A stretch of DNA of 64,000 nucleotides from Stegostoma tigrinum (GCF_030684315.1 NC_081362.1:8488589-8552588), one strand, 5' to 3'. Shown: positions 15,313 through 64,000, counted from the stretch's first letter. The notes: generated by a model not told the origin, from the letters alone. Program-made: numbers and translations.

Positions 15313-15441
15313 AGAGAGTAAGAACTGTTGATTGTGGAGTCAGAGAAAACACAGTGTGGAGCTGGAGGAACACAGTAGGCCAGGCAGCATCAGAGAAGCA
15401 GGAAAGCTGGTGTTTCGGGGCGGGACCCTCATTCTGAAGAA
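15313..15441 (-). mobile_element. Penelope terminal-repeat derivative (family B) with degenerate hammerhead
   Basis: gtgtggagctggaggaacacagtaggccaggcagcatcagagaagcaggaaagctggtgtttcgggg is homologous to the 3' end of the element at 27.9-29.2 kb. Confidence 0.8.
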
Positions 15442-15442
15442 G

Positions 15443-16560
15443 TATTGTCCATTCCTAGTTGCCCTTGAGGCGGTGGTAGTGAGCTGCCTTCTTGAACCAC
15501 TGCAGTCCACCTGCTGTGGGTTGACCCCCAATATCCTTAGGGAGGGCATTCCAGGATTTTGACCCAGCAACACTGAAGGAACAGCAATATATTTCCAAGT
15601 CAGGATGGTGAGCGGCTTGGAGGGGAATTTGCAGGTGGTTGTGTTCCTATGTATCTGCTGCCCCTGTCCTTCAAGATGGAAGTGGTCATGGGCTTGGCAG
15701 GCGCTGTCTCAGGATCATGGGTGAATTTCTGCAGCAAAGTGTGCTGCTACTGAGCGTTGGTGGTGGAGGGAGTGGATGTTTGTGGGTGTGGTGCCAAACA
15801 AGTGGGCTGCTTTGGCCTGGATGGTATCAAGCTCCTTGAGTATTTTTGGAGCTGCACCCATCCCAGCAAATGGGGAGTCTTCCATCCTGACTTGTGCCTT
15901 GTAGATGGTGGGACATGCTTTGAGGAGTCAGGAGGTGGGTTACTCGCCACAGTACCTCTGGCTTCTGACCAGCTTTTGTAGTCACTGTGTTTCTGTGGTG
16001 AGTCCAGTTGAGTTTCTGGTCAAGGGCAACACCCAGGGCGTTGAAAGTGAAGGATACTTTGATATTGCCGCCATTGAATGTCAAAGTGCGGTGATTTGAT
16101 TGTGCCTTATTCGTAATGGCCACAGCCTGGCATTTGAGTGGCACACGTTACTTGCTACTCACTGGCCGAAGCCCGGATATTGTCCAGATGTTGTCAGACA
16201 GATGGACTGCTTCAGCATCTGAGGAGTCGCGGACGGTGCTGAACATTGCGCAATCATTGGTAAACATCCCCACTTCTGATCTTACGATAGTGGGACAGTC
16301 ATTGACGAAGTGACTGAAGATAATTGGGCCTAGGACACTACCCTGAGGAACTCCTGCAGAGATGTCCTGGAGCTGAGATGACTGACCTCCAACATCTACA
16401 ACCATCTTCCTGTGTGTCCGGTATGACTCCATGCAGTGGAGAGTTTGCCCCTGATACCCACGGATTCCCATTTTGCTAGGGTCCTTGATGCTGCAATCAG
16501 TTGAAGGCAGCTTTGGTGTTAAGGTCCATCGCTCAGACTTCATGTTCATTCTGTTTGGTC
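15443..16560 (-). mobile_element. Second CR1-clade LINE family, RT C-terminal half and 3' end
   Basis: AGVPQGSVLGPIIFSHFVND...VGMFTNDC RT motifs. Other fragments lie at ~31600-31985, 45640-46195, 53060-53730 and 55520-55660. Confidence 0.85.
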
Positions 16561-16989
16561 TCAGGCATTCCTGCCAAACCCTGGATGATAACACAGAGTA
16601 GGAATCATATATATATCCAATTTATAAGACTTTGATTCGGGAGTGTTGGCCTGTACTCAAAGTAGTGGCTGAGTTTGCGGCAGCAGCTCAGAGTCTAAAT
16701 TAGAGCTTGGCAAAATATGGAGCTGTCCTTCTAGTGCCATTGATGCCATGCTGGAAAGACTGAGATCACTTCTGCATCAAATAAACCCATACATCAAACT
16801 CTTTTGATCATTATTTCCAAATAAATGAGTCACCGCTTTATTTAAATATTCTTAGGATAATTTGCTCGAGCCAAGTTCATCACATTTGAAGCTCTGTGAG
16901 TGAGAGGCTTTTCTTTCCAGTTTTGAGATTTGTTTTCCTTGCTGGCAATTTTAGGATATTTCCCTCTTTTTTTTTCTTTTTCCAACAAA

Positions 16990-17530
16990 CTTCAATTCAT
17001 ATCATGTCTTTTGCAACATCGGGTTGTCTTAAGGATTTTATAGCAAATTCAGTACTTTTTAAGTGTACTCTATGATGCCCTGCAGGAAACATAGCAATTT
17101 GTACACAGCAAGCTCCCACAAACAGTAATGTGATGACTAAATAAGCTGTTTCTAGTGATGTGATAATGGGAACCGCAGATGCTGGAGAATCCGAGATAAC
17201 AAAGTGTGGAGCTGGATGAACACAGCAGGCCTAGACCCAAAACGTCAGCTTTTGTGCTCCTGAGATGCTGCTTGGCCTGCTCCACACTTTGTTATCTCTG
17301 TTTTTAGTGATGTTGCTCAAAGGATAAAGCACTCAGGATGCTGTTGTTTCCTTTCTTTCAAAGTGTTAGGCATAACTTTTATATTCACCAGGGAGTGGAG
17401 ACAGGGCTTCAGTTTAATGCCTCATCTGAAGACAATCCCTCCCACAGAGCAGCACTCCCTCAGTCCAGACATTTGTGTTTCAGGACTTCCACTTTTCTGA
17501 ATCTGGCCATAGTGCCAGCTACTGAATTTA
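16990..17530 (-). mobile_element. Deu-domain SINE (SacSINE1/AmnSINE1-like), interrupted by a Penelope-derived insert
   Basis: The reverse complement contains ctgagggagtgctgc...gatgaggcattaaac and tgtttgtgggagcttgctgtg, typical of the Deu domain. Further copies lie at ~23590-23790 and ~47570-48030. Confidence 0.7.
17162..17297. mobile_element. Palindromic Penelope-derived mini-element (family A), 16-bp TSD
   Basis: TSD ctgttt(c/t)tagtgatgt at 17146-17161 and 17298-17313; inverted arms. Confidence 0.9.
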
Positions 17531-19378: not shown

Positions 19379-19602
19379 TCAGAGATAATGGGAACTGCAG
19401 ATGCTGGAGAATTCCAAGATAATAAAATGTGAGGCTGGATGAACACAGCAGGCCAAGCAGCATCTCAGGAGCACAAAAGCTGACGTTTCGGGCCTAGACG
19501 CTTCATCAAAGATGAAGGGTCTAGGCCCGAAACGTCAGCTTTTGTGCTCCTGAGATGCTGCTTGGCCTGCTGTGTTCATCCAGCCTCACATTTTATTATC
19601 TT
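19379..19602. mobile_element. Palindromic Penelope-derived mini-element (family A) with two head-to-head hammerhead motifs, perfect 15-bp TSD
   Basis: Arms 19415-19507 and 19511-19603 (93 bp, 1 mismatch, aaa spacer). TSD gctgtaaccacagta at 19364-19378 and 19603-19617. Confidence 0.95.
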
Positions 19603-20635: not shown

Positions 20636-20785
20636 TAATGGGAACCGCAGATGTTGGAGAATCCGAGATAACAAAGTGTGGAGCTGGATGAACACAGCAG
20701 GCCAAGCAACATCTTAGGAGCACAAAAGCTCCTAAGTGCTCCTAAGATGCTGCTTGGCCTGCTGTGTTCATCCAGCTCCACACTT
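20636..20785. mobile_element. Palindromic Penelope-derived mini-element (family A) lacking the ribozyme centre, perfect 15-bp TSD
   Basis: TSD gagctagaacaggga at 20621-20635 and 20786-20800. Confidence 0.93.
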
Positions 20786-24092: not shown

Positions 24093-24930
24093 TATCGTTT
24101 ATTGATGACTTTTGCTAAAAATTATCCCTTGACCAGCCACGATTGTACTCAACGCTAGAGCAGACTCAATTGGCTAGTCGGCATGGAAGAGTTGGACCAA
24201 AGGGTCTGTTTCTGCACTGTACATCTCAATGTCTCTATTTCTGTCTTAAAAATGTACATCCCCTTATGCTAAAATAATGCCCTCTGGTCCAAGGATATCC
24301 CATGAGGAAGCAAAAAGCCTTTCCATATCTATCCTGTCAATTCCTCTAAAAATCTTGCATGTTTCAATAAAGTTGCCTCTCACTCTTCTATATCCCTTGC
24401 AGCTACTGGGAATCCATGGGCAATTTAAAAAAAACCCTGTCCCAATACAGGCACACTGCTGCCTTGAAAAGATGGTACTCTGCAACATGCTGCTGCGGAC
24501 AGCTTGGTTAGCATGGCTAGTTCTGAAGGGAGGACAGAGTAATAATACATAATACAGGAAATTTGACAGTATCAGAGACAGTGTTAACATGAACGGATGA
24601 TGCCAGGGCTAGCTGTTTTTCTTCACAGAGTATTGATTTCCAATAGAATTGATCGTGGAAAGTCAGTGGACCTGCTGCATTATAACATCAGAATGGCAAG
24701 CCGACGTAAAGCATAATGTAATATGCTACCAATACAAGAGAACTATGTTTTACTTGTTTTGTCATTTTAAGGTCACAGTGTTTGACTCCTGTAAGTAAAA
24801 GCTATTTCACAGCATAATATATCAAGGTAGAAGGGTGTACAGCCTCTCAAACATTTCCATCACTTAATAAGACCATGGCTGATCATTTACCTTTATTCTA
24901 TTTACACTAGATCCCCATTTCTCTTGTAAA

Positions 24931-25095
24931 AACCGAAAGAACTGCAGATGCTGTAAATCAGGAACAAAAACAAAGTTACTGGAAAGTCTGAGCAGGTCAG
25001 GCAGCATCTGTGAAAAAAAAGAAGAGTTAACATTTCAGGTCTGGTGACCCTTCCTTCCTCAGAACTCTTGTTCCAAGAAAAGGTCACCAGACCCG
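24931..25095 (-). mobile_element. Penelope-type terminal-repeat derivative (family C) with a hammerhead motif and short inverted arm
   Basis: The minus strand reads agagtt-CTGAGGA-aggaagggtcaccagacct-GAAA-tgtt-aactct, giving a 6-bp stem I (agagtt/aactct). Related copies lie at ~25654-25748, 29856-30195, 37846-37920, 50105-50195, 53755-53950, 55145-55283 and 63797-63930. Confidence 0.8.
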
Positions 25096-26006
25096 TTTTT
25101 CTTGTTTCCCCTTGTGCCTGAAAAATCTCAATCCTGAGTAAATTTGACCCAAGGCTATAATTAGGCAGAATCGTATCCACGAATTGGCTGAAGGCCCAAA
25201 CTCGGCATTCCTGCCGACCGGCACTCCGATGTGGTAAATTCGTGCCTGGTCCAGGACCCCATGCTGCCTGGGCTGACGTTAAGAGACAAGGGTCATCTAA
25301 ACTCATTTCTCAACCCACCCACCCCCACAGCATCACCAAACAACACCAAACCTTCCCAATAGTACTCCTCCATCCTGGAAGCCCAGGAGAAAGGTGTCCT
25401 AGCAGCAGGCCCTGCCTCTATCAAACCTCTGCAGCTCCAGGTGAAAAGACCTTCCCAGTCCAAGAGATCCTGCAGGCTTTCTCACTCTCATTGGTGCAGG
25501 TTCCCTTTCTGGAAGCTGTCGCCCCCTTCACGTCTAGAATGGAAATGGGAAAATCTCAGCTTGCGGTTGTGTAAGAAAGATTCGGAAGGTGCTTGTCAAC
25601 TTATAGTTTCAGTTTGTTTTTAATACAGAGAGAACAAAACAACTTGAAATGATCTGAGGAAGGGTCACTTGACCTGAAACACTAACTCTTATTTCTCTCC
25701 ACAGATGCTGTTGACCTGCTGAGCTTTTCTAGCAATTTCTGTTTTTGAGCCTGAAATTATTACTTTTTTATTCCAAGATATATCGTTTGGCACTTTGAGA
25801 AGGATGGCTTGTAAAACATGGCATCTGAAGTGTGGTGTATGCTCAGTAAACATTTATAGAGAGAAAAATGGCCATTGAGGTAGTCAGGGGATACTTTATG
25901 GGGACTGCATTTACCATATGAACTGAGGTGCTAAAGAACAATAACATTTTAAAACTGCCAGTGGAATACGAATTGGGGTCACTGTTAACCAGAGTAGTTA
26001 TCTCTT

Positions 26007-26102
26007 TTCTGATGAAGTGTCTAGGCCCAAAATGTCAGCTTTTGTGCATCTAAGACGCTGCTTGGCCTGCTGTGTTCATCCAGCTCCACACTTTGCTATC
26101 TC
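26007..26102 (+). mobile_element. Single-arm family A Penelope derivative, 12-bp TSD
   Basis: ctgatgaagtgtctaggcccaaaatgtcagc; TSD tagtta(t/c)ctctt at 25995-26006 and 26103-26114. Confidence 0.85.
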
Positions 26103-27880: not shown

Positions 27881-29196
27881 ACTGGCCCTCTCTGTCTCCA
27901 TCTCAGGCCACCAGCTAAAAACTGATGTCCACTTCAAGCCCCCTGACTCCCACAGCTACCAGAATGCACCTCCTCCCACCCACCCCCTGCAAAAATTCCA
28001 GCCCCTATTCCCAATTCCTTTGCCTCCGCCACATCTGCTCCCAGGATGGGCATTCCACTCCCGCACATCCCAGATGTCCAAGTTCTTCAAGGACCACAAC
28101 TTTCCCCCCCACAGTGATCGAGAACGCCCTTGACCGTGTCTCCCGCATTTCCCGCAACACATCCCTCACACCCCGCCCCTGCAATAACCGCCCTCAGAGA
28201 AGCCCCCTCATCCTGACATACCATCCCACCAACCTCTGGATACAAAGCATCATCCTCCAACACTTCCGCCATCTACAATCCGACCCCTCCACATTTTCCC
28301 AACCCCACCCTTGTCTGCCTTCCGGAGAGACCACTCTCTCTGTGACTCCCTTGTCTGCTCCACACTCCCCCCCCTCCACCCCAACAAACCCACCACACCC
28401 AGCACCTTCCCCTGCAACCGCAGGAAATGCTACACTTGCCCCCACACCTCCTCCCTCACCCCCAACCCAGGCCCCAAGATGGCTTTCCATATTAAGCAGA
28501 TGTTCACCTGCACATCTGCCAATGTAGTATACTCTACCCACTGTACCCGGTGTGGCTTCCTCTACATTGGGAAAACCAAGCGGAGGCTTGGGGACCACTT
28601 TGCAGAACACCTCTGCTCAGTTTCGCAACAAACAACTGCACTTCCCAGTCACGAACCATTTTAACTCCCCCTCCCATTCCTCAGACGACATGTCCATCAT
28701 GGACTTCCTGCAGTGCCACAATGATGCCACCCGAAGGTTGCAGGAACAGCAACTCATATTCCGCTTGGGAACCCTGCAGCCCAATGGTATCAATGTGGAC
28801 TTCACAAGCTTCAAAATCTCCCCTTCCCCCACCGCATCACAAAACCAGCCCAGCTCGTCCCCGCCTCCCTAACCTGTTCTTCCTCTCACCTATCCCCTCC
28901 TCCCACCTCAAGCCACACCTCCATTTCCCACCTACTAACCTCATCCCGGCTCCTTGACCTGTCCGTCCTCCCCAGACTGACCTATCCCCTTCCTACCTCC
29001 CCACCTATACTCTCCTCTCCACCTATCTTCTTTTCTCTCCATCTTCGGTCCGCCTTCCCCTCTCTCCCTATTTATTCCAGAACCCTCTCCCCATCTCCCT
29101 CTCTGATGAATGGTCTGGGGCCGAAACATCAGCTTTTGTGCTCCTGAGATGCTGCTTGGCCTGCTGTGTTCATCCAGCTCCACATTTTGTTATCTT
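27881..29196 (+). mobile_element. 5'-truncated, frameshifted Penelope-like retroelement (Neptune-type): RT C-terminus, Cys-rich linker, GIY-YIG endonuclease, 3' terminal repeat with hammerhead
   Basis: Across frames: KTDVHFKPPDSHSY, PYSQFLCLRHICSQD, PCNRRKCYTC, FTCTSANVVY..HCTRCGFLYIGKTKRRLGDHFAEH and EQQLIFRLGTLQPNGINVDF. ctgatgaatggtctggggccgaaacatc at 29103-29130. Confidence 0.93.
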
Positions 29197-29882
29197 CCTG
29201 AGCTGTGTCATCTCCTTCTGTGATACTGAAGGTCAGGGTCACAGATTCTCCCTGCCTCCCTCTCTCCTGCCATACATTTGCTTTATGTATAAAATTTTAT
29301 TTCCAAAAGAATGTGACTGGACTTTGGGGCAGTTGGAGATCCCAAACCAAAAGAGAAAATGACAGTGTGCATCAAATTCTATTCCCTGGAGGTGGGAACC
29401 AGGCACCGAGACTATGACTGGATCCCTTGAGTCATTCCCTGAAAGGGACAGCCACTGACTGGAATTTTGACTGGGACACTGTCTCAGTTAGCAAGGTGCT
29501 CTGAAAAGATGGAGAGCAGAACCAGAGCCGATGATTCTTGCTTCAAATCAGCGTTGCTGTGCAGTGAAAGGTAAGTGGCTCTTCAATGAGAAAGAACTTT
29601 TCGAAAAGTTTAATTGAAAGGTACAAAACACAAACAGGCCACCACAAGAGGTTGGAGTGGGACTGAGGAGGTGGCGTAGGGGGGTGCAACAGAGGGTTCT
29701 CCACTGGGAGGCCTTAGACTTCATCTTTACCCAGGGGGGGCAAGAATGATCTGAACAAACACGGATATGACCAGAGAGACTCAACAGGTTCGGCATTGTC
29801 TTTGTAGGCAGATACAGTGTTAACATCTTGATTTGAGTCTACATTCTGATGAAGAGTCAAACCAGGCTCGAAATATTTACAT

Positions 29883-30117: not shown

Positions 30118-30759
30118 GTCATTCTCTCCACAGATGCTGCCAGACCTGCTGAGCTTCTCCAGCCTTCTGCGTGTTTGTTTCAGACTTCCAGCATTTTGCT
30201 ATTTATGGTGGAAACATCAGCAACTCAGACCACCTCCCCAAACAGCTGAGCCCTCCCTCCACTCCTCTGCTCCCGGAAACTGGAGACCAACAGGAGAATC
30301 CCAGTCAGCCTCCATGACTTCACATGCACATGATTAAGGAACCATGTGCCGATACTGGCTGAGGCTACTGGAAAACCGGAACACTGGCCCACGCTGATAT
30401 TTCCAGGCCCTGGCGACAAACATTGACATGACCTCTGCGAAGACGAAAATTTTGTTTTAGACCAACCAAAATAAAAGTACACATGGCAGGACACAAATAG
30501 AAAAAACTGGGACCAAATTCACATAGCCATGACAACAAATTTACCTGTTATCCAGCAACTGGTCATTCTCATGCAACTGGCAAAAATTAAGAAAGGAAAT
30601 TTACCATTTTTAACAGGTTTCTTCAAACCAAAAAATCCACTTGAATTTGGCATGCCTCGTTGCAATGCGTGAATGTTTAGCTGCCCAGTGGTAGTTCTCC
30701 CAGCTGCCACTAATAATGCTGTCCACTGTCCTCTCTCACGGAGGCACCATTACTGGACG

Positions 30760-30938
30760 AACACAGTGCAGAGCTGGACGAACACAACAGGCCAGGCAGC
30801 ATCAGAGGAGCAGGAAAACTGATGTTTCGGGTCAGCTTTCTTGCTTTCCTGTTCCTCTGATGCTGCCTGGCCTGCTATGTTCCTCTAGCTCCACACTGTG
30901 TTATCTCTGACTCCGGTATCGGCAGTTCTTACTATCTC
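30760..30938. mobile_element. Palindromic Penelope-derived mini-element (family B)
   Basis: Inverted arms gccaggcagcatcagagga and tcctctgatgctgcctggc, with tail ggcagttcttactatctc. Confidence 0.88.
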
Positions 30939-36574: not shown

Positions 36575-37050
36575 GGAGTCATAGAGGTTTATAAAATCAT
36601 GAGGAGAGTGGACAGAGTAAATAGACAAGGTCTCTTCCCTGGCGTGGGGATGTCCAAAACTACAGGGCATAGGTTTAAGGTGAGGGGGCTGGGGGGGTTT
36701 AAAAGGGTCCCAAAGGGCAATGTTTTCATGCAGAGTAAATGGAATGAGCTGCAGAGGAAGTGGTGGAGACTGGTACAGTAACAACATTTAAAAGGCATGG
36801 ATACATGAATAGGAAGGGTTTAGAGGGGACATGGGCCAAATGTTGGCAAATGGGACTAGATTAACTTAGTATATCTGGTTGGCACGGACAAATTGGACTG
36901 AAGGGTCTGTTTTCGTGCTGTGCATCTCTATGAACCTAAGTGAAGCCATACGTTTTCCTGCTCCTCCGATGCTGCTTGGCATGCTGTGTTCATCCAGCTC
37001 TACACCTTGTTGTCTCAGATTCTCCAGTATCGGCAGTTCCTACTATCTCC
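36575..37050 (+). mobile_element. CR1 3' end (~36575-36932) followed by a family B Penelope terminal fragment (~36952-37049)
   Basis: GLFPGVGMSKTTGHRFKVRG; ttcctgctcctccgatgctgcttggc...ggcagttcctactatctc. Confidence 0.85.
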
Positions 37051-42198: not shown

Positions 42199-42394
42199 GA
42201 TAACAAAGTGTGGAGCTGGATGAACACAGCAGGCCAAACAGCATCTCAGGAGCACAAAAGCTGACGTTTCGGGCCTAGACCCCTGGACCCGAAAGTCAGC
42301 TTTTGTGCTCCTGAGATGCTGCTTGGCCTGCTGTGTTCATCCAGCTCCACACTTTGTTATCTTGGATTCTCCAGCATCTGCAGTTCCCATTATC
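42199..42394. mobile_element. Palindromic family A mini-element, 14-bp TSD
   Basis: TSD cca(a/g)ttctgtgcaa at 42185-42198 and 42395-42408; near-perfect arms of ~75 bp. Confidence 0.93.
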
Positions 42395-42531: not shown

Positions 42532-42697
42532 GATAACAAGGTGTCGAGCTGGATGAACACAGCTGGATGAAGAAGAGTCCAGACCAGCAACATCAGCTTT
42601 CCTGCTCCTCTGATGCTGTCTGGCCTGCTGTGTACATCCAGCTTTACATCTTGTGATCTCAGATTCTCCAGCATTGGCAGTTCCTACTGTCTCTGGA
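42532..42697. mobile_element. Asymmetric palindromic family B mini-element, 14-bp TSD
   Basis: TSD tgaatt(a/g)gt(g/a)ctgg at 42518-42531 and 42698-42711. Confidence 0.85.
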
Positions 42698-43293: not shown

Positions 43294-43463
43294 GCGGCCA
43301 AGCAGCATCTTAAGAGCACAAAAGCTGATGTTTCGGGCCTAGACCCTTCATCAGAAAAGTGGTGTGGGGAGAGGGTTCTGAAATAAATAGGGAGAGAGGG
43401 GGAGGCGGACCGAAGATGGAGAGAGGAGAAGAGAGGTGGAGACAGGAGTATAGGTTCCATTAT
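43294..43463 (-). mobile_element. Penelope 3' UTR and terminal-repeat fragment (family A) with hammerhead, 13-bp TSD
   Basis: Matches 28995-29165. The minus strand reads CTGATGAagggtctaggcccGAAACatc. TSD ctctg(c/t)gatacat at 43281-43293 and 43464-43476. Confidence 0.9.
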
Positions 43464-43740: not shown

Positions 43741-43979
43741 TATGTTTATACACATGTACACAGTATAAGCCAACACACTGTCCTTCAGTATTTCTGCATA
43801 AAAAGACACATTGTATTGAAGCTTTTCACCTTGCACTCATCAGGACAATTTGCAAGAATACCAAAGAACATGGGAACATGGTGCATTACACTGGCGCATT
43901 CTCCAATAGCAACACACTTAGGAATAGTCAACCAATCTGCATATTCTTGTCATACTGTTTAGAAATGTTGTTCTCCACT

Positions 43980-44700
43980 TATTTGATTTGATTTGATTTA
44001 TTCTTGTCACATGTACCCAAGTACAGTGAAAAGTCTCGCCCTGTCCGTCTTCTCTCCCACCTATCGGCTCCTCTATCCACCTTCTATCACCACCTACCCT
44101 CTCTCTATTTATTTCAGAGCCCCCTTCCTCCTTCCCCATTTCTGAAGAAGGGTCCAGACCCGAAACGACAACTTTCCTGCTCCTCTGATGCTGTCTGGTC
44201 TGCAGTGCTCATCCAACTCTACACCCTGTTGTATCAGTGAAAAGACTGTGTTGCATGTTATGCACATCATAACATAAAGATCATAGGGTGGTAGACCAGA
44301 GTGAGGAGTATAAAGTTACAGCTGCAAATAAGGAGCGCAAAAAGCAAGATCAGCATTAGATTTGAAATTTGAGAGGTCCATTCAGAAGTCTGATAACAGT
44401 GGGGAAGAAGGAGTTGGTATAGACGCTTAAGCTTTTATATCTTCTGTCCTAATGAAAGAGGTTGGAAGAGATTACAACCGGGGTGGGAGGGATCTTTAAT
44501 GATGTTGGCCGCTATTCCATGGTTTCTCGAACTGGAGATGGAGTTAATGGAAGGAAGGTTGGCTTGCATGGTGCACTGGGCCATGTTCACAACTTTCTGT
44601 AGTTTCTTACAGTCCTGGGCAGAGCAGTTGCCCTAACTAGCTGTAATGCATCTAAGTAGAATGCTTTCTGTGGTGCATCTCTAAATGTTGGTGAGAGTCT
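43980..44700 (-). mobile_element. Rex1/Babar-type LINE 3' end containing a nested Penelope terminal fragment (44037-44234, +, 13-bp TSD)
   Basis: Homologous to 48240-48735, with an (atttg)n tail. TSD cagtgaaaag(t/a)ct at 44024-44036 and 44235-44247. CTGAAGAagggtccagacccGAAACgac at 44142-44169. Confidence 0.8.
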
Positions 44701-45262
44701 TTACTCGAGTATTCTTGCAAATCATCCTGATGAGTGCAAGACAAAAAGCTTTTGCAAAAACTTCTGTACGCAATACTCAAGTCCCGTCTGGCCAAATGAT
44801 ATTTTCCTTCCACAAATCAACACACAATGATTTCATAAACAAAATGAATAAAATCTGATGTGCAATGTTTCAGCATGCTATATTTCTTTGGTGATTTAAC
44901 AATCTGAACTAGAGCACATAATAAGAGTCAGGAGGATTAGTTTCCACATGCAATCAAGTCTGCAAGTTCAGCCAGACATGTTTTCGAAAATATTGTAAAT
45001 AAATCCACAATGACAAATGAATAGCTCAGTTATGAAGTGATGCTACATTCTGCTCAAGCACAGCAGTGGGATGCAACAATCCTGAATGATCAGCTCTGCG
45101 GTGAGGAAGATGAGCCTCTTAATTCGCTGATGTAATTTCCTGGCTTGTTAATAGCATTAGTCACAAAAGAAGACAACTGCAGTGTGTTTCATTGGAAGAC
45201 AGGCATTACTGATGGCTAGAACAGATGTGAAGGTGTGGGTGTTGGATGAGGGTGGACAATGC

Positions 45263-45369
45263 CAGAAGGCACACGACTCCACATTATAGTCCAAAAGGTT
45301 TATTTGAAATCACAAGCTTTCAGAGGTTCACCTGATGAGGGACTATAACCTGGTGTTTTGTGACTTCTG
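45263..45369. mobile_element. Short palindromic element (family F) with split hammerhead remnants
   Basis: 30-bp inverted arms at 45263-45292 and 45340-45369; internal cacaagctttc (reverse complement GAAAGCTTG) and cCTGATGAgg. Confidence 0.6.
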
Positions 45370-48239
45370 AAAATGGCTACAACAGAGACTGGCCTGTAAC
45401 TTACTGAGGCCAAAATAATCTTTACTGACAATTTTGAATTCAACCTACACAACTGTAATTTTAAATGATTCATGTGGAGGAAACTTAATTTTATTTCTTC
45501 AGTCTTGCTGGGTCATACATGAATGAGGGGCATTATTGGCCTCCAAGCTTCTGTCAAGGCTTTGGTTGAACTGGTCACAAGATTGGAGACAGTAGAGATG
45601 ATATGCCCTCCTGCAACAACCTTCCCTCTCTTCATAGATTGTGCCAGCATTTATTGCCCATCCCTTGTTGCCTTTGAGAAGGTGCTGGTGAGCTGCTTTC
45701 TTGAATCACTGCAGTTCATGACCTGTCAGTAGATCTACAATACCCCCAGGTAAGGAATTTCAGGATTTTGACCCAGCGATAATGAAGAAATAGCAATGTA
45801 TTTACAAGTCAGGGTGATAACAGCTTTGAGGGGAAATTGCAGATGATGGTGTTCCCATGTGTCTGCTGGTATTGTCCTAGATGGAAGTGGTCAACGGTTT
45901 GGAAGGTGCTATATAAGGATCTTTGGTTAATTTCTGCAGTGCATTTTGAAAGTGGTACGCACTGTTGTTACTGAGCGTTGGTGATGGAGGAAGTGGTTGT
46001 TTGTGGATAGGGCGCCAACTAAGTGGGTTGCTTTGATCTGGATGGTGTTGAGCTTTGAGTGCACCCATCCAGGCAAGTGCGGAGTATTCCATCACACTCC
46101 TGAGTCGTGCCTCTTGGATGGTGGACAGGCTGTGTCAAGAAGGGAGTTACTCAATGTAGAAATCCTAGCCTTTGAGCTGTTTTTGCAGCCATTTGATGTT
46201 GCAAGTGCTCATCCACGAACTTATTAAAGACTGTGAGATTTTCCTGCCTCAACCATCCTCCAAAGCAGCAGAGTCAAGATTCCCACCAAACTTCTGGTTG
46301 AGAAGAATCTTTCCTCAAAGCCCCTCCAAGCGTCCTGCCTTTCACCTTAAACTGTGGCTCGTTGTTTGTGGCCTCATTCACTTTTTTCTCAAGATTTTTC
46401 AAATTTCAAACGGAGGAGACAGGGGAGATAATGACTTGTCAGATAAACACGTTAGATCAGCAAACAAAAAGCAGCAAACATGCACACACAGCAGCAACAA
46501 AGATGGTACACATTACCGTTCAACTCTGGATTAATGCATCTGTCGCCATTGCCAACGCTTGGCATTAGGAATTTGATTAAAAAAAATTTCTTCCGACTGA
46601 TGCCACAGTTACATCTAGGTCAGAGTTTACTCAGTATCAGGCCGCTGCCGTCTGCAAGGTATCAATGATACACAAGGACAGCAGTTAACACTGATCCCAG
46701 TTGGCACACAGCTGCTGGCTGTGGGATTCACCAGGGTCAATTCAGAGCAACATGGCTTTCAGGAATATCGGCCCAGAGGGGAAGCAAGTCACATTTACTC
46801 TCAAATCTGCTCAGAGGAGCTCCTTCAATTTTAAGGACTAAATCCAATTTGCAACAAAGATGAAATGTTAAAATTACCCTGAGGATAACTGTACCTCTTC
46901 TCGTACAGCTTGCAAAATAAATATAGTGGGGCAGTTCAGTTACTCATGCATTGCCTGTGGTTGATTTGAGAGTGGGGTTAGGCCACTACTGTGCTAGACT
47001 TTGAACTGGAGAAGAAAAATCAATGCCAGAAGCAGCTCGGGGGCATGGAGAAGCCAATTTAATTTGATGTGAAACTCTCAGCTCGGGTCAGGGATAAAAC
47101 AGTGAACAATGCATGATTCACAAAATTCTTTTTTGTGTCCAAAACATGACTGTGTCTCAATCCTGGTTCTGCCATGAGTAACAATTGCCTGAAACTGAAA
47201 CCAACAAACCTTCTGGCTCAGCTAAATGCCAAGCCAGTCATGTTGAAAAGGCACCTGGTCAATGTGTCCATTGATTTTGGGGTTGTTTTATAGGAAGCTT
47301 TGTGCATGAGATCACATCAAAGCAGTTCAGAGAGCTAAAACGCAGAGGTCTGTTCTAGTGCCCATCCTTCCCAGTGTTTGTAAATGATACAGAGTGAGGC
47401 TTGTTTTTCACAATGTTAATCATGACTGATAACACTGAACTATGAAGCAAGGTGAATAACATAAAGCAATTGTTTGAAAAGTGAACACACTGACTTACAT
47501 TTACATTGCACTGTAATCCAAATGGTTGCTGTATTTTAAAGAGCTGGGGTCATAGTTGCTAAGTAAATAAATGCAGACTTTTATTGTGTTTTTTGAAGCC
47601 ATAAGACATCCCAAGAACTTTTACCACTGCTTTGGAAGCATAGCCGCTGTTGTAAGGTTGGAAATAAGGCAACCAATTTGCACACAGCAAGCATTCACAA
47701 GTTTCAATGTTACAATGTACAAGCAAAGTAATAATGTTCAGATAATCTGTTTTTATAATATTGACTGAGGCATAAATATTGTCCTGGACAATGTAGTACC
47801 TTGCTTTAACATCCCATTCTCAGACAGGCTCCTCAGGCAATGTAGCACTCCCTCAGCACTACAGTGAAAGGACATCAACATGGAACACTAAAACCCTCCC
47901 TCCTCTCCACAGATATAACTAGCGCTGCTTAGCACTCAGCATTTCCTGTTCCAATTACTATTGGAGTTGATATTTTGCAGTAGTGCTCAAGTAGGACTTG
48001 AGCTTACAACCGTCTCACTCAGGATTTTATTTTTAAAAAAGCAACCTGATGAAGGCCTGCCTTCAAGATCCTCCTACTGCAGAGATAAGGTCACTGCTGC
48101 TGCAACATGACTGCTCGTTTCTGGCTCAGGAAATCATACGCCCGAACTCACCCACCTGTGATGCCTGGTTTAAGTTGGTTCAATAATGGGGCACAATGAA
48201 GGATTAGAAATTGAAAGCATCTGCTTCCAACTCATTTGC

Positions 48240-49940: not shown

Positions 49941-49944
<4 letters not shown>

Positions 49945-50264
49945 ACCATGTCTTCACAAATGCTAGGAATTCCCCCAACCTCTCCAACCCTCTCTTTCCT
50001 CTTTCAACTGCTCCTTAAAAAGTACCTCTTACCAAGCTGCAAGTTATCTGCTTTTATATCACCGACCATAACTCAGTTTCAAACATTTGTTCTGTAACTT
50101 TTTGAGGAAAAACGCTTACTCTGCTTTCTCTTCACAGATGCTCCCAGATCTGCTGCACTTTTCCTGCAGCTTCTGTCTTCCAGCATCCACAGTTCTTTCA
50201 GGTTTTCATTTGTTTGATAATGTTTGTCTGATGTCGCCCAAAGATGACATTTTATTGCAGAAAA

Positions 50265-51217: not shown

Positions 51218-51369
51218 GAGATAATGGGAACTGCAGATGCTGGAGAATCCAGGATAACAAAGTGTAGAGCTGGATGAACACAGCAGGCCAAGCAGCATCT
51301 CAGGAACACAAAAGCTGACGTTTCGGGCCTAGACCCTTCATCAGAAAAGGGAATATCCTTTTTCTGATG
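51218..51369 (-). mobile_element. Family A Penelope derivative with short inverted arm and 14-bp TSD, inserted in a SINE
   Basis: TSD aagga(cg/ta)gcaatta at 51204-51217 and 51370-51383. Confidence 0.9.
51315..51346 (-). ncRNA. Minimal type-I hammerhead ribozyme motif (best-preserved copy)
   Basis: The minus strand reads tt-CUGAUGA-A-GGGU(cuag)GCCC-GAAAC-GUC-ag: intact core, stem II, loopless ACGU stem III and a GUC cleavage triplet. Activity untested. Confidence 0.7.
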
Positions 51370-54300
51370 AAGGATAGCAATTACCTTCCCTAAATGGCAT
51401 TGGTACACGAGATAGTTGTTTCCAACACTGGATTCTGTGATCATTATTAGATCCTTAATTTCAGGTTTTTAAATTAATTGATTTCAAATCTTCCAATGGC
51501 AGGGTATGAAGCCAGGCCCCCAGAACAATATCAGGATCTACTGGTCTAATGATAGCACCACTAGGCCATCAGCTGCCTGTCCCCAGTTACTACAACAGTT
51601 ACACTTCTCAAAGCCTACAACTAAAATGATAAATTTGAGTGTTTTATCTCAAAGTAATGGTGAATGGGTTGCTGACCTGACTTTCCTCATCAGGTCTGTT
51701 GAAATTGTTGAAGACGTCACGGGCAAGAGGTCAGTGTTTGATGTCTGTGTATCACTGCCCTCGATCTGTGCAGCCGGCGAGGGCCATTTCACAAATGGGC
51801 GACATTGCTGTGCGTCTGGAGTCACGTGTAGGCCAGATCAGGTAACGATGGGCAGTTTTCGTCCCTCAAGGGGCATCTGAGAGCCAGATGAGCTTTTACG
51901 ACAACTGACGATTGCAGTGATCGTGACAGTCACTAAGACGAGCTTTCCATTCAAAGCGCATTTACTGAATTTTAAACTGCACTACCTGCCTCCTCCATCT
52001 CTCTCTCTCTCTCCTCCTCCCCCTCTCCCTGTCTCCCTCTCTCTAACCCCCCCCCTCCCACCCCCAACCCCCGCCCCGAGCTGTTACCCAAACAGCTGAT
52101 TAGAAACACTGAGGGTGAGCTACATGACTCACACAGAGTCTTCTGCTTCTTGCAGGGAAAAGGTCTCGCCCTTGTTGGAGCTCTGTAACGCACACTGCAG
52201 GGGCTGCGGGCCACTTCAAGCAGAAGGTAAGGGGCAGGGCAGCGGGGTGGGGGATGGATTTCTGTTCCTCAGGGAGAGAGGTAGTGGTAGTAGTAGGAGG
52301 TAAAGTCACCACCGGCCCACAGGACAAGCTCTCAGTGGCCAACAAACACATCTTCATTGACAGCAACCCACCACCCATTCCTTCCTGCCATTTTCAACTT
52401 TTGAGCCAAAAGGTTGCCCACACCTTCCCCATTTCCCATGCCAATGGTACTATGGCATCGGCAGGATAGTATTTGACAACATCAAATGAGCTTTATTTAT
52501 TTACCATATTATGGGGCTGAGTTTAAGAGTGATTTGGAAGATGTCACTCTGGGCACCCTCCCCATATTATGTGACACAGTTTATGTTGAACACCCCAATT
52601 ATCATTGTACTGTGCAACTGGTGAAGAGGCAGAGGGCTCACTAGACCAACATTTGCTATTGGACAGATGAAGGACATCCAATATTACTGCATTTGGACAT
52701 TTTCTCTCTTCTTCCATTTTGTACGCAAACATCAAATTCACATAAGTAGCTGACTGAATGTCACTGGGTTCAACAACTTGACATGGTAACACACAAAATT
52801 AGCAGCACTGAAACAAATCATTCACCTTACCAGGTCATGATAGGTAGAAGCATCTTCTGACCATCCTCTCACCTTTCTTTATCTCATACCATCAATACAT
52901 TCTTTTATCTTTTTTCTCACTCTCCCTCATGTGTTTATTTAGTTTCCCCTTAAATGTTTTTAGGTTGTTTACCTTGACCGCTTCTTGTAGTAGACTCATC
53001 CTTCATTAAACGAAACAGGCTCACAATTCTGTATTGAGTATTTCACTCCCTAATTCCTCCACTATCTACAAGGCACAAGTCAGGAGTGTGATGGGACACT
53101 TGCCTGGATGGGTGCAGCTCTAATAACTCTCCACCATCCAGGACAAAGCAGCCTACTTCACTGGCACGCCATCCACCATCCTCAATGTTGACTTCCTTCA
53201 CCAGCGACACACAGCGGCCTACTGGCACTATTGATGAACTGTTAATCAAGAGACCCAGATAATGTTCTGGGGGCTTGGGTTCAAATCCCGCCATGGCAAA
53301 TATTCAATATTTATATGGTCTATATGTGACTCCAGACCTACAGTAACGTGGTTGACTTCTGGGCAATAGGTTCTGCCTAGCCAGTGAGACCCTCATCCTG
53401 TAAATGAATAGAAAAAAGTACAAGATGTTCTTCAACAATTCAAGACTCTTTCAGACAGCACCTTCCAAGCCAATGACCAAGACCATTTAGAAGGGCGAGG
53501 GCAGCAGATTCACGGAAACACCACCACCTACAGGTTCCCCTCCAAGCCACTCACCATCCGATTTGGAAATATATCGCCATTTCTTCAGTGTCACTGGGTC
53601 AAAATCCCGGAGACCCCTCTCTCATGGTACTTTGGGTACACCTACACCACTGCAGCAGTTCAGGAAGACAGCTCATCACCACTTTCGCACAAAGACAAAT
53701 GGCAATGATGCCCATATCCTGTGAAATAATATTAAGCACTTCTGCAGAACACAATAAGGGTCACTAGACTCAAAACGCTGACTGTGCTTTCCCTCCATAG
53801 ATGCTGCCAGACCTCAGAGTCATATGACATGGAAACAAACTCTTCAGTCCAACTTGTTCATGCCAACCAGGCATCATAAGCTGAACTAATCCCATCAGCC
53901 TGTGTTTGACTCACATCTCTGCTGAGTTTCTCCAGCAATTTCTGTTCTTGATATCTTCATATTGCTGAATTGCACTGTAATTTGCCAGCTTTGAAATTTA
54001 CTTGCAAAATCTTTCTTAACCAATGCACCTGGAGCTGATAGAAAATGAATTACACTGAGAATCTCTTCGGAGGACTGTAAAGTAAATGGCTTGGAAAATA
54101 AGATTTCTCAGCCCTCTGTGTAACCAAAATCATTTGAAATGTCCAGTACGTTGGGTCTTAAGTGGAATCGTTCGAGCTTAATATACCTTATGACACACAC
54201 ACACAACTGGTGGAAGTACAAATGATTACCGCATACAAAATGTAACAGGTCTGTGGGCGGTCTAACTATTAAGGCAGTAACTGCAATTGGTTTCCACAGG

Positions 54301-54449: not shown

Positions 54450-54935
54450 GGCTAAGGCACAGTTGGGAAAGACCACTGTCTGAGGTCTTCCAGCTGCAGT
54501 TAAATGGGGATCTCTTCAATTATCAGACCCTTCTGGTGCCTCAAATGCATGCAAACATAGTATGAGATGCGAGATGAGAGATAATGGGAATTGCAGATGC
54601 TGGAGAATCCGAGATAACAAGATGTGGAGCTGGATGAACACAGCAAACCAAGCAGCATCTCAGGAGCACAAAAGCTGATGTTTCGGGCCTAGTCTGATGA
54701 AGGGTCTAGGCCCAAAATGTCAGCTTTTGTGCTCCTAAGATGCTGCTTGGCCTGCTGTGTTCATCCAGCTCCACACTTTGTTATTTTATAGTCTGAGATG
54801 CCTTCGGTTTGCTTGGATAGAGTCAAAGTCCAATGTTTCCTTGATATGCTACTGTACAGAACTGAACTACATTTGTGGCTATATGTATATGTAAAAATTG
54901 ATTCTTGTTTGAATAAAGTTAATTTTGAAATTTAA
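54450..54935 (+). mobile_element. Tx1/L1 LINE extreme 3' end containing a palindromic family A insert (54571-54787, 14-bp TSD)
   Basis: KAQLGKTTV* matches the end of the Tx1 ORF2 at 57.6 kb; AATAAA near 54912. TSD atagt(a/c)tgagatgc at 54557-54570 and 54788-54801. Confidence 0.75.
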
Positions 54936-55679
54936 ACAAAAGAAATTCACAAAAGGTGTTATGTCACCGGACAGGGCCATTTGTCCTTTGTGTCTGTACT
55001 AGCTCTGCAAGTGAGCAGCCTGACTTCGTTCCATACCGCTTCACATTATGTGAAAAAAAATCATCAATGCCCTCGTGAGTGCCTCCACCACACTTCCAGG
55101 CAGCACATTTCAGACTCAAACCACGTGTGTTGGGTGGCAAGGTTTGCTGGAGAAACTCAGTATGTCTGGCAGCATCTGATGAGGAGTCGCCGGACTCAAT
55201 GTTAACTCTGCTTTCTTCCCACAGATGCTGCCAGACCTGCTGAGTTTCTTCAGCAATTTCTGTGTCTGTTTCTGTATTTACAGTTCATTTTTCATTGAAA
55301 TGCTTCTTTTGCAAATCACTTCAGACCTGTGCCCTCTCATTCTTGATCCCTTTCCCAGCAGGAACAACTTCAAGTGAGAACAATTTCTCACTGTCTGCTT
55401 TACTCAGGCCCTTTATGACACTGAACTCAAATTCAATTAATTTAAGTGGAATTGAGAACCAGCATCAGCAACAGTACCATGAAACTTTTAGGGATCGCTC
55501 CAAAAATAGCTTCGGCTCACTCGTCCACTTCAGGAAAGGCAATATACTGTCCTTGTCTGGTATTCTGTGACAGATGCTCTCAAAACCCCTGCAAGACTCC
55601 TTCCGCAGCACCTTCCAAATCCAGCAATGCAGTTGAATCTTCACTGTCCTCTGAAATGCAGACCACTTAATTCTAGGGC

Positions 55680-60044: not shown

Positions 60045-60759
60045 AAATAAGAAAATCTCACAAATGTTCATACTCTTCCTCCCTCTCATTAATGTCATTG
60101 AACCATCACATTCTTGTAATTGTTTCCTCGACAACACAATTTGCAAGTTCATTACAAGATTTCCATAATGCGGCCATTTGACAGCATGAGGCATACACAT
60201 TTGATATTGCTCAGGAAATATCGGTACTTCTGAAATAAAACAACTGAAAGCATCCCAGTCTTGAAAATGTCAAGTACCAGCGATCCAGTAGACAAGGTGG
60301 ATGGTCTTACAAAACCAAACTCAAGTGTGCATCGACTACAAACTCTGAAACAAAGCTTACCATAAGTTAATTAAGTCACAATGAGACAGCAAATTCAGGG
60401 GATATTGAGAGATGAAACAGTACAATAAAGAAGACAAGTTCACAATCTAAACATCATCTTCAGAACGCACAGCACTCATTTTTCTCATCAGTATCATGCA
60501 AAACATATCGAGAAACCACTTCACACATAAAAATCAAGGCTAGAATTTCTGTGACACTTCTCTTAAATAGGAATGCAAAATATAAATAATTTACCCCAAT
60601 GGCGTTCTGAGCTCTGGATGTGAGTTTCCAGCTGGTACCCTGCAACGCAAACAGAGCTCGTTCCAACACAGTACAGTACAACTTACAAGCTGAATTTGCA
60701 GATCCCAAGGTTCATATTGACAAGCAGGAGAAAACCATTTGCACCTTCCGCTGTGACAG

Positions 60760-62700
60760 GAGGGGTTGCAAAGGAAATTCACCAGGATGTTGCCTGCGAT
60801 GGAGAGCTTAAGTTAGGAGAAGAGGTTGGATAAGCTTGGGTTGTTTTCTTTGTAGCAGAGAAGGCTGAGGGGAGATTTCACACAGATATATAAGATTATG
60901 AGGGGCATGAACAGGATGAATAGAAAATACTGTTCTGCCCTTTAGTCAAAGGGTCTAAACAAGGGGAGATAACTTTAAAATGAAAGGCAGCAGGTTTAGA
61001 GAGGATGCAAGGAAAACCTTCTTCACCCAGAGGATGGCATGGATCTGGAATGTAATCTGGTTAACCTTTGCTCATAGAACAATCTCTCCATACCAAGGAT
61101 ATTCTGAGTAAATCTTCTCTGAACTAGTTGAGCCGGTTAGGCCTGTACTCATTGGGGTTGAGAATAATGAGACCTTATTGAAACACACAAGATTATTAGG
61201 AGGCATTACAGAGTAGATGTGCAGAGGTTTTTACTGGGAGGATAATTCAGGCAGAAAACCTCAAACCTTTAACAAGTGCTTGGATGAGCACTCCAAGTGT
61301 CATAACATTCAGGCTACAGGCCTGATGTGGGAAAGTGGGACTAGTACAGACAGTGGCTTATTTTTGGCAGTAGAGACTTGATGTACTGTATGATTCTATG
61401 ATTTGGAAAATTTGGAAACATTTTGCTCCTTGGAGAATGGTCGCATAATGCAGCTGTTTCATTCTCAGAAGAAGCCCAATAAATGACGCAGTCCTCCAAC
61501 TTTCAGATCCTTGTTTAAACACCAGTCACTGCCTGCCACACTACACAGTGCTGAGATCAAACTAACTTAGTTTCCAGTCCCTGCTACCTATCAGAAACCA
61601 GGCATTCAGGTCAAACCACGGGACACTGAGCCATCTCAAATGCTCCAAATAACCATGCTTCGTGTGTTCAACCTCTGAGTGAGGTGCACCAATTTTGTGT
61701 GACTTTAGTGGCTACTGAGGCCAGGTCTGAGGCTTGTTGCCAAGTGGAATCAGTGCATAGGGACTTGGTCATATGAAAATCACATGCACGAGACCCTAGA
61801 TGATACTTATTAAAACTATACAAGGCGCGAGTAGGACAATGGCTGGAATACTGTGAACAGCTCTGGGACCCTTATCTGGGGGAAGTTAGACTGGCATTGG
61901 AGGCAATCCAGACAAGGCAGATGTTGGGACTGTTATGGGCACAGACCATAAGAAATTGCAACAGGAGTGGGTCATTGTGCCTCGCGAGCCTGCTCTGCCA
62001 TTCAATGTGATCATGGCTGGTCCAACATTCCTCAATCCACTTTCCTGTCCTTTCCCCATAACTTTTGACTCCCCGACTGATCAAGAATCTAACTACCTCA
62101 GCCTTAAATACTCACAAGGACGAGTGGCTAAGAGTTCCAAACACACTCAACCCTCAGAGAGAAGAAATTTCTCGTTATCTTAAATCGGCACCCCTTCGTT
62201 CTGAAACTATGGCATCTGGTCCAAGACTCTCTAAGAGGGGAAACATCCTCTCAGCATTTCCCCTGTCAGACCCCTTAAGAATCTGATATGTTTCAACAAG
62301 ATCACCTCTCATTCTTCTCAACTCCAGTGAGTAGCGGCCCTGCTTGTTGAACCTTTGCTCATGAGACAGCAGCCTCACCATCAACAGCACCCCGACCAGC
62401 AATAGCTTAGTTATTTCAGTTGTACAGGTAGACTGAAGACTGAGAGCATGTCTGACTGTAGTACTTAAAATCATGAGGGGTCTGAACAGACAGGAATGGG
62501 GAGAAAATGTTCTGGCCCATGAATGGATGGAGAACAAGGGGGCGCAGGCAAAGTAATTCAGAGAAGAAGCAAAAATGTCACGAGGAATATCTTTTTCGGC
62601 GCAGCGAGTGGAATGCTCTGCCTGAGCGTATGGTGGAGGCAGGTCCAATTGAGAAGAAACTTGGATGGTTATTTGAAAAGGAACGATGAGCAGTGAGAAA
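60760..62700. mobile_element. Cluster of CR1 fragments in both orientations (~60760-61400 +, ~61800-61925 +, ~61945-62365 -, ~62430-62700 +)
   Basis: Repeated RR(L/M)RGD and YSLE motifs and CR1 tails. Confidence 0.8.
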
Positions 62701-62954
62701 AGGCAGGAGAACAACACTGACCGAGGCACTCATCCAGAGAGACACTGCAAAGATTTGAATCACCTCCCTCTCCATGATAACAGTTCGACAATTCACTACA
62801 TGGCATTATGACAGATGGTTTCAGAGACCAATACACAGAGATCTTTTGTCGTTCTGTGGTGCAGTTATCATTTCTACATCTTCGTAAGGGCAATCCCAGT
62901 TAGTGCAAAGACTAGCAGCAAGTCTCACCGCAGTGACTGCTTTAGCACATAGGG

Positions 62955-64000
62955 TCACTGGGCCAGACAGCATGGAAATGGACCCTTCAGTCCCAACCAA
63001 AATCCCAAATTAACCTGGTCCCACCTGCCTGCGCAAGGTCCACGTCCCTCCAAACCTTTCTGGTTCATGTACATTTTTCAAATGTCTTTTTAACAGCATC
63101 CACCACTTCCTCAGGAAGTTCGTTCCACCCACGAACCACCCTTCGTGTAAATAAAAAGTTTGCCCTTCAAGTCCCTTTCTCCTCTTTAGGGCGGCACGGT
63201 GGCTCAGTGGTTAGCACTGCAGCCTCACAGCACCAGGGACCCGGGTTCAATTCCAGCCTCGGGTGACTGTCTGTGTGGAGTTGACACATTCTCCCTGTGT
63301 CTACGTGGGTTTCCTCCGGGCGCTCCGGTTTCCTCCCACAGTCCAAAGATGTGCAGGCTAGGTGGATCGCCATGCTAAATTGACCATAGAGTTCAGGGGT
63401 GTGTGGGTTATAGGGGGATGGGTCTGGGTGGGATGCTTCAAGGGGCGGTGTGGACTTGTTGGGCCAAAGGGCCTGTTTCGACACTGTAGGGAATCTAATC
63501 TAATCTAGTTAAAAATATGCCTCGCCAACTTGAAATTCCTGACATGCCATTCAGTTATCTATACCACTCATGATTTTATAAATCTTTATAAGGGCACTAC
63601 AAAGAAAAAGTCTTAGTCTATCCAATCATTCCTTATTGCTCAAACCCTTCATTTGCAGCCACATCCCCGTAAATATTTTCTGAACCCTCTTCAGATTAAT
63701 AACATTCTATAGCAGGGTGGCCAGAACTGCACACGGTACTCCAGAAGAGGTCTCACCAATGTCCTGTACAATCTCAGCATCCCAACTCCAGCACTCAAAA
63801 CCGAAAGAACTGCGAATGCTGTAAATCAGGAACAAAAACAGAAGTTGCTAGAAAAGCTCAGCAGGTCTGACAGCGCCTGTGAAGGAAAAAAAAACTCAGG
63901 CATAATTTCGGGTCCGGTGACCCTTCCTCAAGGTCTGAGCAATAAAGGCAAGCATGCTAAATGCCTTCTTATCCACTCTGTCAACATGTCCGATGCACTG
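62955..64000 (-). mobile_element. CR1 3' portion with nested HE1 SINE and family C Penelope derivative (~63797-63930)
   Basis: The reverse complement encodes LRLYRTLVRPLLEYRVQFWP-like sequence; the nested inserts interrupt colinear CR1 sequence. Confidence 0.85.
63189..63507 (+). mobile_element. Young full-length HE1 SINE
   Basis: gggcggcacggtggctcagtggttagcact (A box), gggttcaattcc (B box), V-domain and (aatct)n tail. Confidence 0.95.

Follow-up and report, generated by a model that had tools for sequence, protein, structure and literature searches.

Penelope-like elements (PLEs) that encode an endonuclease (EN+) leave a recognizable kind of insertion. In the published descriptions (PMC3846280, PMC8557442), the pseudo-long terminal repeat (pLTR) is paired with a head-to-head inverted copy that is shorter at its 5' end, a tail of 30-40 bp extends one of the inverted pLTRs only, the target is duplicated, 5' truncation is heavy, and the protein ends in a GIY-YIG domain with a CX2-5CxxC linker. 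The same anatomy is found in a population of short insertions, here called minis, and their parent element in a 64-kb stretch of the Stegostoma tigrinum genome (NC_081362.1:8488589-8552588), which as a whole is referred to as the window. Unlike the insertions described in those papers, however, the main copy here consists at 20 of 23 loci of no more than its last ~65-135 nt, with 5' ends that cluster at a hammerhead ribozyme motif. The duplications are 12-16 bp here, against 8-10 bp in the Adineta examples (PMC3846280). In the elements of the latter report, the tail continues the open reading frame (ORF) beyond the pLTR.

The motifs in the window share with the minimal hammerheads of PLEs (Cervera and de la Pena 2014, PMC4209133) the core, the bulged base before stem II, the G10.1-C11.1 pair, the palindromic 15.2-16.2 and the absence of helix III. 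Helix I is 2 bp in families A and B of the window, as in Drosophila virilis, compared with 4-5 bp in the Schistosoma families (PMC4209133); stem II is 4-5 bp here. According to the same source, solitary minimal hammerheads occur in thousands per genome, are attributed to truncated PLEs, and include opposite-strand pairs 100-700 bp apart. The sections consulted mention no shark.

The first in vitro system for a PLE dates from 2024 and concerns the Poseidon element PAc of Anolis (Frangieh et al. 2024, PMC11167929). As reported there, the PLE protein, modelled as a dimer, cuts and extends both target strands, its reverse transcriptase (RT) starts on a pLTR-ORF template at two internal sites that lie downstream of the hammerhead and bracket the tail, and 5'-shortened templates give shorter products. 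The layout of the minis is alike in its two bracketing ends and in the involvement of both strands. However, PAc belongs to a different clade, its start sites are AC-rich whereas the ends here are U-rich, and its ORF starts at stem II, where the equivalent ATG frame of family A stops after 13 codons.

Non-LTR (long terminal repeat) retrozymes (PMC7229834; bioRxiv 10.64898/2026.07.22.740005) also resemble the minis, being short, non-coding, equipped with a type I hammerhead and related to PLE pLTRs, and they are reported in one chondrichthyan. These accounts describe head-to-tail tandems, mostly canonical ribozymes and circular RNA, whereas the minis are dispersed, head-to-head or single, with minimal ribozymes. 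No head-to-tail tandem arrays of terminal units occur in the window, and identity with retrozymes was rejected on that ground. The short length, inverted repeats and duplication give the minis the look of miniature inverted-repeat transposable elements (MITEs), but they have neither a fixed internal sequence nor a fixed duplication length, and their parent is an RT element. Ancient human hairpin repeats were considered as a precedent and set aside, as only UCON13 is placed under Penelope and palindromes go unmentioned in the portion available (PMC5753468).

In the open full-text literature, which covers few subscription journals, no description of shark minis, of the 5'-end cluster or of PLE twin priming was found. 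The families may well be annotated in Dfam/Repbase already. Known PLE biology mostly explains the minis, which are not a new class. What was not met with in that literature is the non-random limit of their 5' ends and the restriction of the tail to one arm.

Inventory and parent element

The window was compared with itself by BLAST and searched with nine natural copies as queries, and the matches were checked against the sequence. This gave 27 candidate loci (Table 1): 15 of family A or B (long copy included), 8 of C, 2 of E, and one each of F and G. Families A, B and C account for 23 of them. Judged by their 5' reach, three of these 23 insertions are long and 20 are short, and the terminal unit dominates as the initial annotation had stated. 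Its count of more than 20 short inserts is likewise confirmed, since the 22 short A/B/C loci measure 43-224 bp each and total 3,143 bp, or 4.9% of the window; the palindrome at 45252-45380 and the remnant at 7279-7321 (the latter outside 15313..63930) were absent from its list. Of the roughly five families then proposed, A, B and C stand. E consists of two decayed copies and F of a single core, neither with a target duplication, and neither is established as a family in this window.

All loci come from one window and are of mixed age. Family A arms depart from their majority at about 1-8% of sites, while B and C are more diverged. The proposed homology of A and B to the 3' end of the element at 27881-29196 holds, with identities of about 86-96% for A arms and about 74-89% for B arms. 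Family C is about 74% identical to A/B over 77 nt, tail included, and has the same tail and duplication anatomy. No coding sequence was found in the window beside C, E, F or G.

In the long copy at 27881-29196, a frameshifted coding sequence covers the distal RT region, a CX4CxxC linker and GIY-YIG; the window does not contain the RT catalytic core. A whale shark protein that matches Pfam RVT_1 and GIY-YIG shares 74% identity with the ORF piece of this copy, and a Pfam search with the window ORF pieces alone gave no match. In tblastn searches, residues 134-462 of the whale shark protein map to 27868-28848, which is the sole stretch of the window matched by shark RT/GIY-YIG proteins; comparison with all 270 retrieved proteins yielded no further PLE coding fragment of a convincing kind. 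Among named proteins, those of whale shark and zebra shark are most closely related to the coding fragment. A zebra shark protein runs through the 3' untranslated region (UTR) into the same terminal unit, with 13 of 14 residues identical, and the unit is therefore common to these sharks.

The linker CNRRKCYTC in ORF 28188-28664 fits the CX2-5CxxC motif, which precedes GIY-YIG in Neptune and Nematis and is lacking in Penelope/Poseidon, as described in PMC8557442. By this motif, rather than by an RT tree, the predicted parent of A/B is an EN+ PLE of the Neptune/Nematis type. Neptune is preferred because the published vertebrate PLEs are only Neptune and Poseidon. Of the features by which EN+ PLEs are defined, a PLE RT followed by a C-terminal GIY-YIG, an inverted truncated copy, a one-sided tail and a duplication of variable length are found here. 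The Penelope origin assigned by the initial annotation, with a minimal hammerhead in the terminal unit, is supported; for C, E, F and G it is putative.

Clustered 5' ends

Signed positions are counted from the predicted hammerhead cut, with +1 for the base that follows the NUH triplet (in the long copy, 29131). On this scale the hammerhead core starts at -28 in A/B and at about -30 in C. The 5' reach was defined as the furthest extent of each of the 23 A/B/C insertions, hand-adjusted at junctions. None ends between +36 and +11, 20 end between +10 and -40, and three reach beyond (-128, -133 and -1250). In other words, 20 of the 23 stop inside the hammerhead or a short way upstream of it, and this limit is non-random. 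The fullest 14-nt window, -37 to -24, holds 12 furthest ends (scan against a constant-hazard model, p=0.00125). A three-zone likelihood test gave p of about 1e-8 with zones picked after viewing the data. When 30-nt fragments were implanted, 39 of 40 and 36 of 40 were recovered; the empty zone from +36 to +11 is therefore not a detection gap. Abortive truncated insertions had been named as the alternative, and the centres are indeed unique, as it predicts. The clustering of 5' ends at the hammerhead shows that the truncations are not random.

Microhomology for fold-back was tried as the specific cause of the cluster and rejected, as almost any point of the template offers terminal fold-backs of 3-6 bp, and this holds too for +20 to +45, a stretch without a single furthest end. 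Given this ubiquitous pairing, little weight is attached to the 3-bp fold-back at 20623 and other single-junction anecdotes.

Tails, palindromes and target duplications

Two 3' ends are in use, one at +65/66 and the other at about +99 (range +97 to +103). The tail is the segment of 33-34 nt from +67 to about +99 and is carried by one arm. In A/B both ends lie in or near TTATCT, about 20 nt past a TCCAGC-like motif, and in C both lie in or near GTTTT. Because the end motifs match, the tail seems to repeat the terminal segment imperfectly.

The head-to-head palindromes with a tail on one arm that the initial annotation described are confirmed. Inversions occur at 13 loci, seven of which are full palindromes (A/B) and six of which have an inverted piece. 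Each of the seven full palindromes has one arm with the tail and one without (p=0.008 for an independent choice by each arm). At 15309, 24929 and 51107 the tail arm gives way to a short stretch of the hammerhead region in sense orientation, and 55144 and 45252 are partial palindromes. At 43296 the last 13 nt of the tail are inverted against the long arm. This layout fits twin priming of L1, in which the two pieces do not overlap. Most other arms copy the same region, unlike L1.

An automatic search around each locus found target duplications with a score of at least 8, and 12-16 bp long, at 11 of the 27 loci, against a null rate of 2.9% in 650 mismatched left/right flank pairs; weaker duplications at 25655 and 50109 were left uncounted. 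Ten such duplications had been claimed before. As they exceed the null, separate insertions at staggered cuts are supported, and with them the proposed insertion by the PLE RT/GIY-YIG. The target duplication of 26001 (25995-26006) is similar to the terminal motif of the element. In the case of 54569, the target and the tail end (within 54557-54585) are separated by a short GAGAT repeat, as if priming had restarted.

The inversion junctions differ from each other in 13 of 13 cases. A MITE was rejected on this evidence, there being no shared centre or fixed ends. For the same reason it is highly improbable that the palindromic unit itself replicates, be it as a MITE-looking element or as a ribozyme-driven circular RNA replicon. 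The high local density and the duplications around palindromes would suit such a replicon, but those duplications vary in length and sequence, several palindromes (20623, 30760) are without any core, stem I has only 2 bp in A/B, and head-to-tail repeats are missing.

A different kind of independent unit would be a single arm of ~135 nt, non-autonomous in the manner of a short interspersed element (SINE) or MITE, which contains the promoter, the hammerhead and both start sites and is remobilized in trans, with palindromes formed anew at each insertion. The excess of 20 short over 3 long copies and their sharp upstream limit are what it predicts, and an internal promoter, such as the one described in the pLTR of Penelope (PMC2377424), would travel along. 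There are also precedents: pLTR sequences alone mobilized a host gene in trans in Adineta (PMC3846280), and non-autonomous PLE derivatives have been described among the Chlamys elements (PMC8557442) and in the form of retrozymes. On the other hand, the short copies begin anywhere between -37 and about +8, which is a spread of about 45 nt, and no tandem copies are present in the window. Moreover, no variant splits short from long copies. G16A is found in the long copy 43296 and in the short copies 20623, 26001 and 54569, and C55T in the long copy 27881 and in the short copies 19378 and 54569, although this comparison covers two long A copies only and single changes can recur. Such a unit is quite unlikely. 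With the variable junctions, the missing tandem arrays and the variants common to long and short copies, the separate, replicating, MITE-looking class envisaged by the initial annotation is not upheld.

The more serious competitor, though still unlikely, keeps the same parent and lets the RT stall or fold back at the hammerhead hairpins or at the pyrimidine-rich tract upstream, so that palindromes arise by self-priming and the tail is trimmed on one side at resolution. Self-priming is the published reading of junction palindromes (Arkhipova et al., PMC3846280), and the tail has been ascribed to endonuclease-mediated resolution (Craig et al., PMC8557442). In the predicted fold of family A RNA, the whole hammerhead lies in one hairpin that closes at -28. 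Arms of 17153 and 42195 stop where stem II has its edge (-20), four of the seven full palindromes have a tail arm that exceeds the tail-less arm in length, and the three loci with a tail arm and short sense piece have the expected look. Against stalling, folds of the A and C units are no better than those of shuffled sequences (z -1.55 for A, -0.72 for C), and 3-6 bp fold-backs are available all along the template, even where no furthest ends lie. The tail-less arm is longer in the other three palindromes; simple self-priming from the tail cDNA is therefore insufficient, unless the centres were later deleted. The two arms of 54569 differ at 8 of 79 sites, the same level as between separate insertions (8.0%).

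The hammerhead motif

The minis had been described as hammerhead-bearing, which is true only in part. In A/B arms, C3, U4, G5, A6, G8, A9, A14, A15.1 and C17 are invariant, and most departures at G12, 15.2 and 16.2 are CpG-type. The CUGANGA, GAAA and NUH core is supported, as is stem II, but an arm spans the core in just 12 of the 23 A/B/C loci (read from arm extents), and it is exact in five. Across the window, the exact core pattern has 11 matches where 3.4 are expected, a number reached by 1 of 100 shuffles; three of the 11 (2 sites) fall outside these families and are probably chance. Stem II is paired in 93.1% of cells across A, B, C and F, with a compensatory G-C to A-U change in 2 of 13 sequences and U-G/U-A alternation. 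The score of the whole structure was reached by 4 of 500 shuffles, a fraction that is not a probability because the sequences are related. A helix I of 5 bp is possible in C; 24929 is the one copy to show it, and does so at a junction. In the helix I columns, several rows contain host or junction bases. The reading as a putative ribozyme thus holds for the families, not for most copies. One arm (20623) begins exactly at the predicted cut.

The Rfam search that had been suggested found no hammerhead in the window at E<=1. This silence is presumably to be expected, because the motifs have no helix III. It returned only microRNA (miRNA) hairpin matches below the Rfam gathering thresholds, mostly on palindromes (19468-19550, 20695-20764, 30771-30891 and 42228-42333); palindromes probably give rise to false miRNA calls. 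Past the cut, copies of family C (25680-25708 and others) have a pyrimidine run, ACAG and then ATG, like a 3' splice site. In the D. virilis Penelope, an intron is described as ending at the hammerhead (PMC4209133).

A model for the origin of the minis

The explanation preferred here, that the minis are PLE by-products made by two-site priming and leader run-off, is given a probability of about 0.6. Its parts are not equally firm. The minis are very likely one-off insertion by-products of ordinary Neptune-type PLEs, two-ended priming is somewhat favoured, and leader run-off has slightly less than an even chance.

According to this model, GIY-YIG would make a staggered cut of 12-16 bp, and both 3' ends would prime cDNA, one strand at the tail-end site and the other at the short-end site, 34 nt apart. 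The cDNAs would join head to head, or sometimes one would fold back instead. Synthesis would be short if the template were the leader of the element's messenger RNA. The tail would then lie at the pLTR/ORF junction and the transcript would start inside the pLTR, just upstream of the hammerhead, so that the RT would run off the RNA 5' end after about 95-135 nt. Strong-stop DNA is the analogy for such a run-off product. The minority of ends at +1 to +8 may derive from hammerhead-cleaved RNA.

Several points weigh against this model. The evidence comes from 23 loci of mixed age. The PLE studied in vitro is a Poseidon with AC-rich start sites, whereas the ends here are U-rich and the parent has a Neptune/Nematis linker. 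Self-priming is compatible with the fold-back look of 15309, 24929 and 51107, and also with 19378, whose arms differ at 1 of 92 sites and have three private variants in common. Later deletion may have altered palindrome centres, so today's junctions need not be the original ones. The pyrimidine-rich tract of A/B starts right at -29 and could stop the RT alone. Tail-less arms extend past -37 in 3 of 14 cases and tail arms in 0 of 14, as leader run-off would have it, but the difference is not significant (Fisher p=0.11, counts hand-entered). Including the B-like fragment at 26345-26500, which was excluded for having no terminal unit, would add a fourth long copy.

The course of the tail into the ORF is a further weak point. 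The window holds no full-length PLE copy (pLTR-ORF-pLTR with the tail leading into the ORF), and the protein searches found no full-length shark PLE protein. Families A and C do not keep the tail in one common frame, and the tail frames have no protein match. A 43-aa frame spanning the tail gave none at E<=10, and a 27-codon ATG frame, too short for a database search and compared with 124 proteins only, gave no meaningful one. The tail motif had 0 matches in bacterial genome contigs, where shark contamination was looked for.

A bolder version, in which the leader cDNAs are strong-stop-like, a dimeric RT-endonuclease acts on two start signals and some short units seed further copies, is rather doubtful. 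If it were true, the short units would retain promoter and start signals, and shark genomes would be a very large natural record, at base resolution, of the PLE start site, the ribozyme cut and both priming sites.

Features of the window

The features are collected in Table 1. A pyrimidine-rich sequence resembling the 3' UTR of B occupies 26345-26500 on the minus strand, possibly to 26950, and stops shortly before the hammerhead; the sequence upstream of it has no PLE protein match. The locus at 45252-45380 is a palindrome that has its centre deleted and belongs to another family of the hammerhead type. Another short repeat family is present at 43109-43264, 51107-51215 and 51799-51890. One copy contains the 51107 mini, and another is about 30 bp away from the 43296 mini, possibly by target preference, possibly by chance. 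Nesting is also seen where a C copy is split by a ~100-bp repeat (53815-53918) and where another C copy lies within a longer interspersed repeat (63605-63997). Near the start of the window there are a 30-bp minisatellite of 15.7 copies (139-619) and an assembly gap of 182 N (about 14640-14820). Among the proteins consulted, annotated ray and snail isoforms named kinase-like, chitinase-domain and XIAP (P0010, P0058, P0123) carry PLE RT/GIY-YIG sequence, probably through mis-annotation or exon capture.

Table 1. Mini-elements and related features of the window, by position. Labels are those used in the text and vary slightly from the coordinates; "dup." is target duplication.
Feature	Coordinates	Strand	Label	Remarks
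Decayed A/B-type remnant	7279..7321	+		-15 to +28; no dup.
B-type tail arm to about -25, then short sense core piece	15309..15441	-	15309	No dup.; right end abuts another repeat
A palindrome, centre at stem II	17162..17297	.	17153	Tail arm (-) internally deleted; 16-bp dup. 17146-17161/17298-17313
A palindrome	19379..19602	.	19378	Tail arm (-) to -27, short arm (+) from -26; 15-bp dup. 19364-19378/19603-19617
A palindrome without core	20636..20785	.	20623	Tail arm (-) starts exactly at +1; 15-bp dup. 20621-20635/20786-20800
C tail arm with core and short sense stem II piece	24928..25091	-	24929	14-bp dup. 24914-24927/25092-25105
C single arm from first core base, no tail	25654..25748	+	25655	Weak dup. 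8/9, score 6, uncounted
A single arm, about -30 to +65, no tail	26007..26102	+	26001	12-bp dup. 25995-26006/26103-26114
Neptune-type PLE copy (putative), family A, 5'-truncated, frameshifted	27881..29196	+	27881	RT-region end, CX4CxxC linker, GIY-YIG, pyrimidine-rich 3' UTR, terminal unit; short end (+66), no tail, dup. not found
Minimal type I hammerhead in long copy	29103..29130	+		Predicted cut after 29130
F hammerhead core, 5-bp stem II	29846..29878	+		Single copy, element extent undefined
C arm without core, partial tail	30122..30194	+		
B palindrome	30760..30938	.	30760	Tail on + arm; tail-less arm longer (-11 vs +2); dup. not found
B tail arm from about +4, without core	36954..37049	+		Dup. 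not found
C arm from about -32, hammerhead partly deleted, no tail	37845..37922	+		
A palindrome centred on stem II	42199..42394	.	42195	Tail on + arm; 14-bp dup. 42185-42198/42395-42408
B palindrome	42532..42697	.		Tail-less arm +30 to +65, tail arm from -27; 14-bp dup. 42518-42531/42698-42711
A long arm (-128 to +31) inverted against last ~13 nt of tail	43296..43463	-	43296	13-bp dup. 43281-43293/43464-43476
E copy 1, decayed, hammerhead-like core	43819..43861	-		
B long single arm, about -133 to +65, no tail	44037..44234	+		13-bp dup. 44024-44036/44235-44247
E copy 2	44709..44755	+		Likeness to copy 1 starts at same base, about 18 nt before core
G palindrome, single locus	45252..45380	.	45252	Sense arm starts near CTGATGA core, downstream part deleted; dup. 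not found
C arm with tail, decayed core	50098..50206	+	50109	Weak dup. 11/14, score 5, uncounted
A tail arm to -37, then hairpin turn and short sense piece	51218..51369	-	51107	Intact core 51317-51344; 14-bp dup. 51204-51217/51370-51383
C arm from -24, split by ~100-bp unrelated insert	53756..53951	+		Insert 53815-53918
A palindrome	54571..54787	.	54569	Tail arm (-) to -16, tail-less arm (+) from -29; 14-bp dup. 54557-54570/54788-54801
C partial palindrome	55144..55283	.	55144	Sense arm starts at core, has compensatory stem II pair
C tail arm to about -29, lying within a different repeat	63797..63930	-		

Significance

The origin of PLE tails and inverted repeats has been counted among the undefined features of the cycle (Craig et al., PMC8557442). 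With fixed paired 3' ends and clustered 5' ends, the PLE mechanism becomes countable on any shark assembly. The minis are also an annotation trap, since they take up about 5% of the window, look like MITEs and attract sub-threshold Rfam miRNA hairpin scores. Finally, that nearly all of the minis end at a small self-cutting RNA motif hints at the mode by which PLEs are copied.

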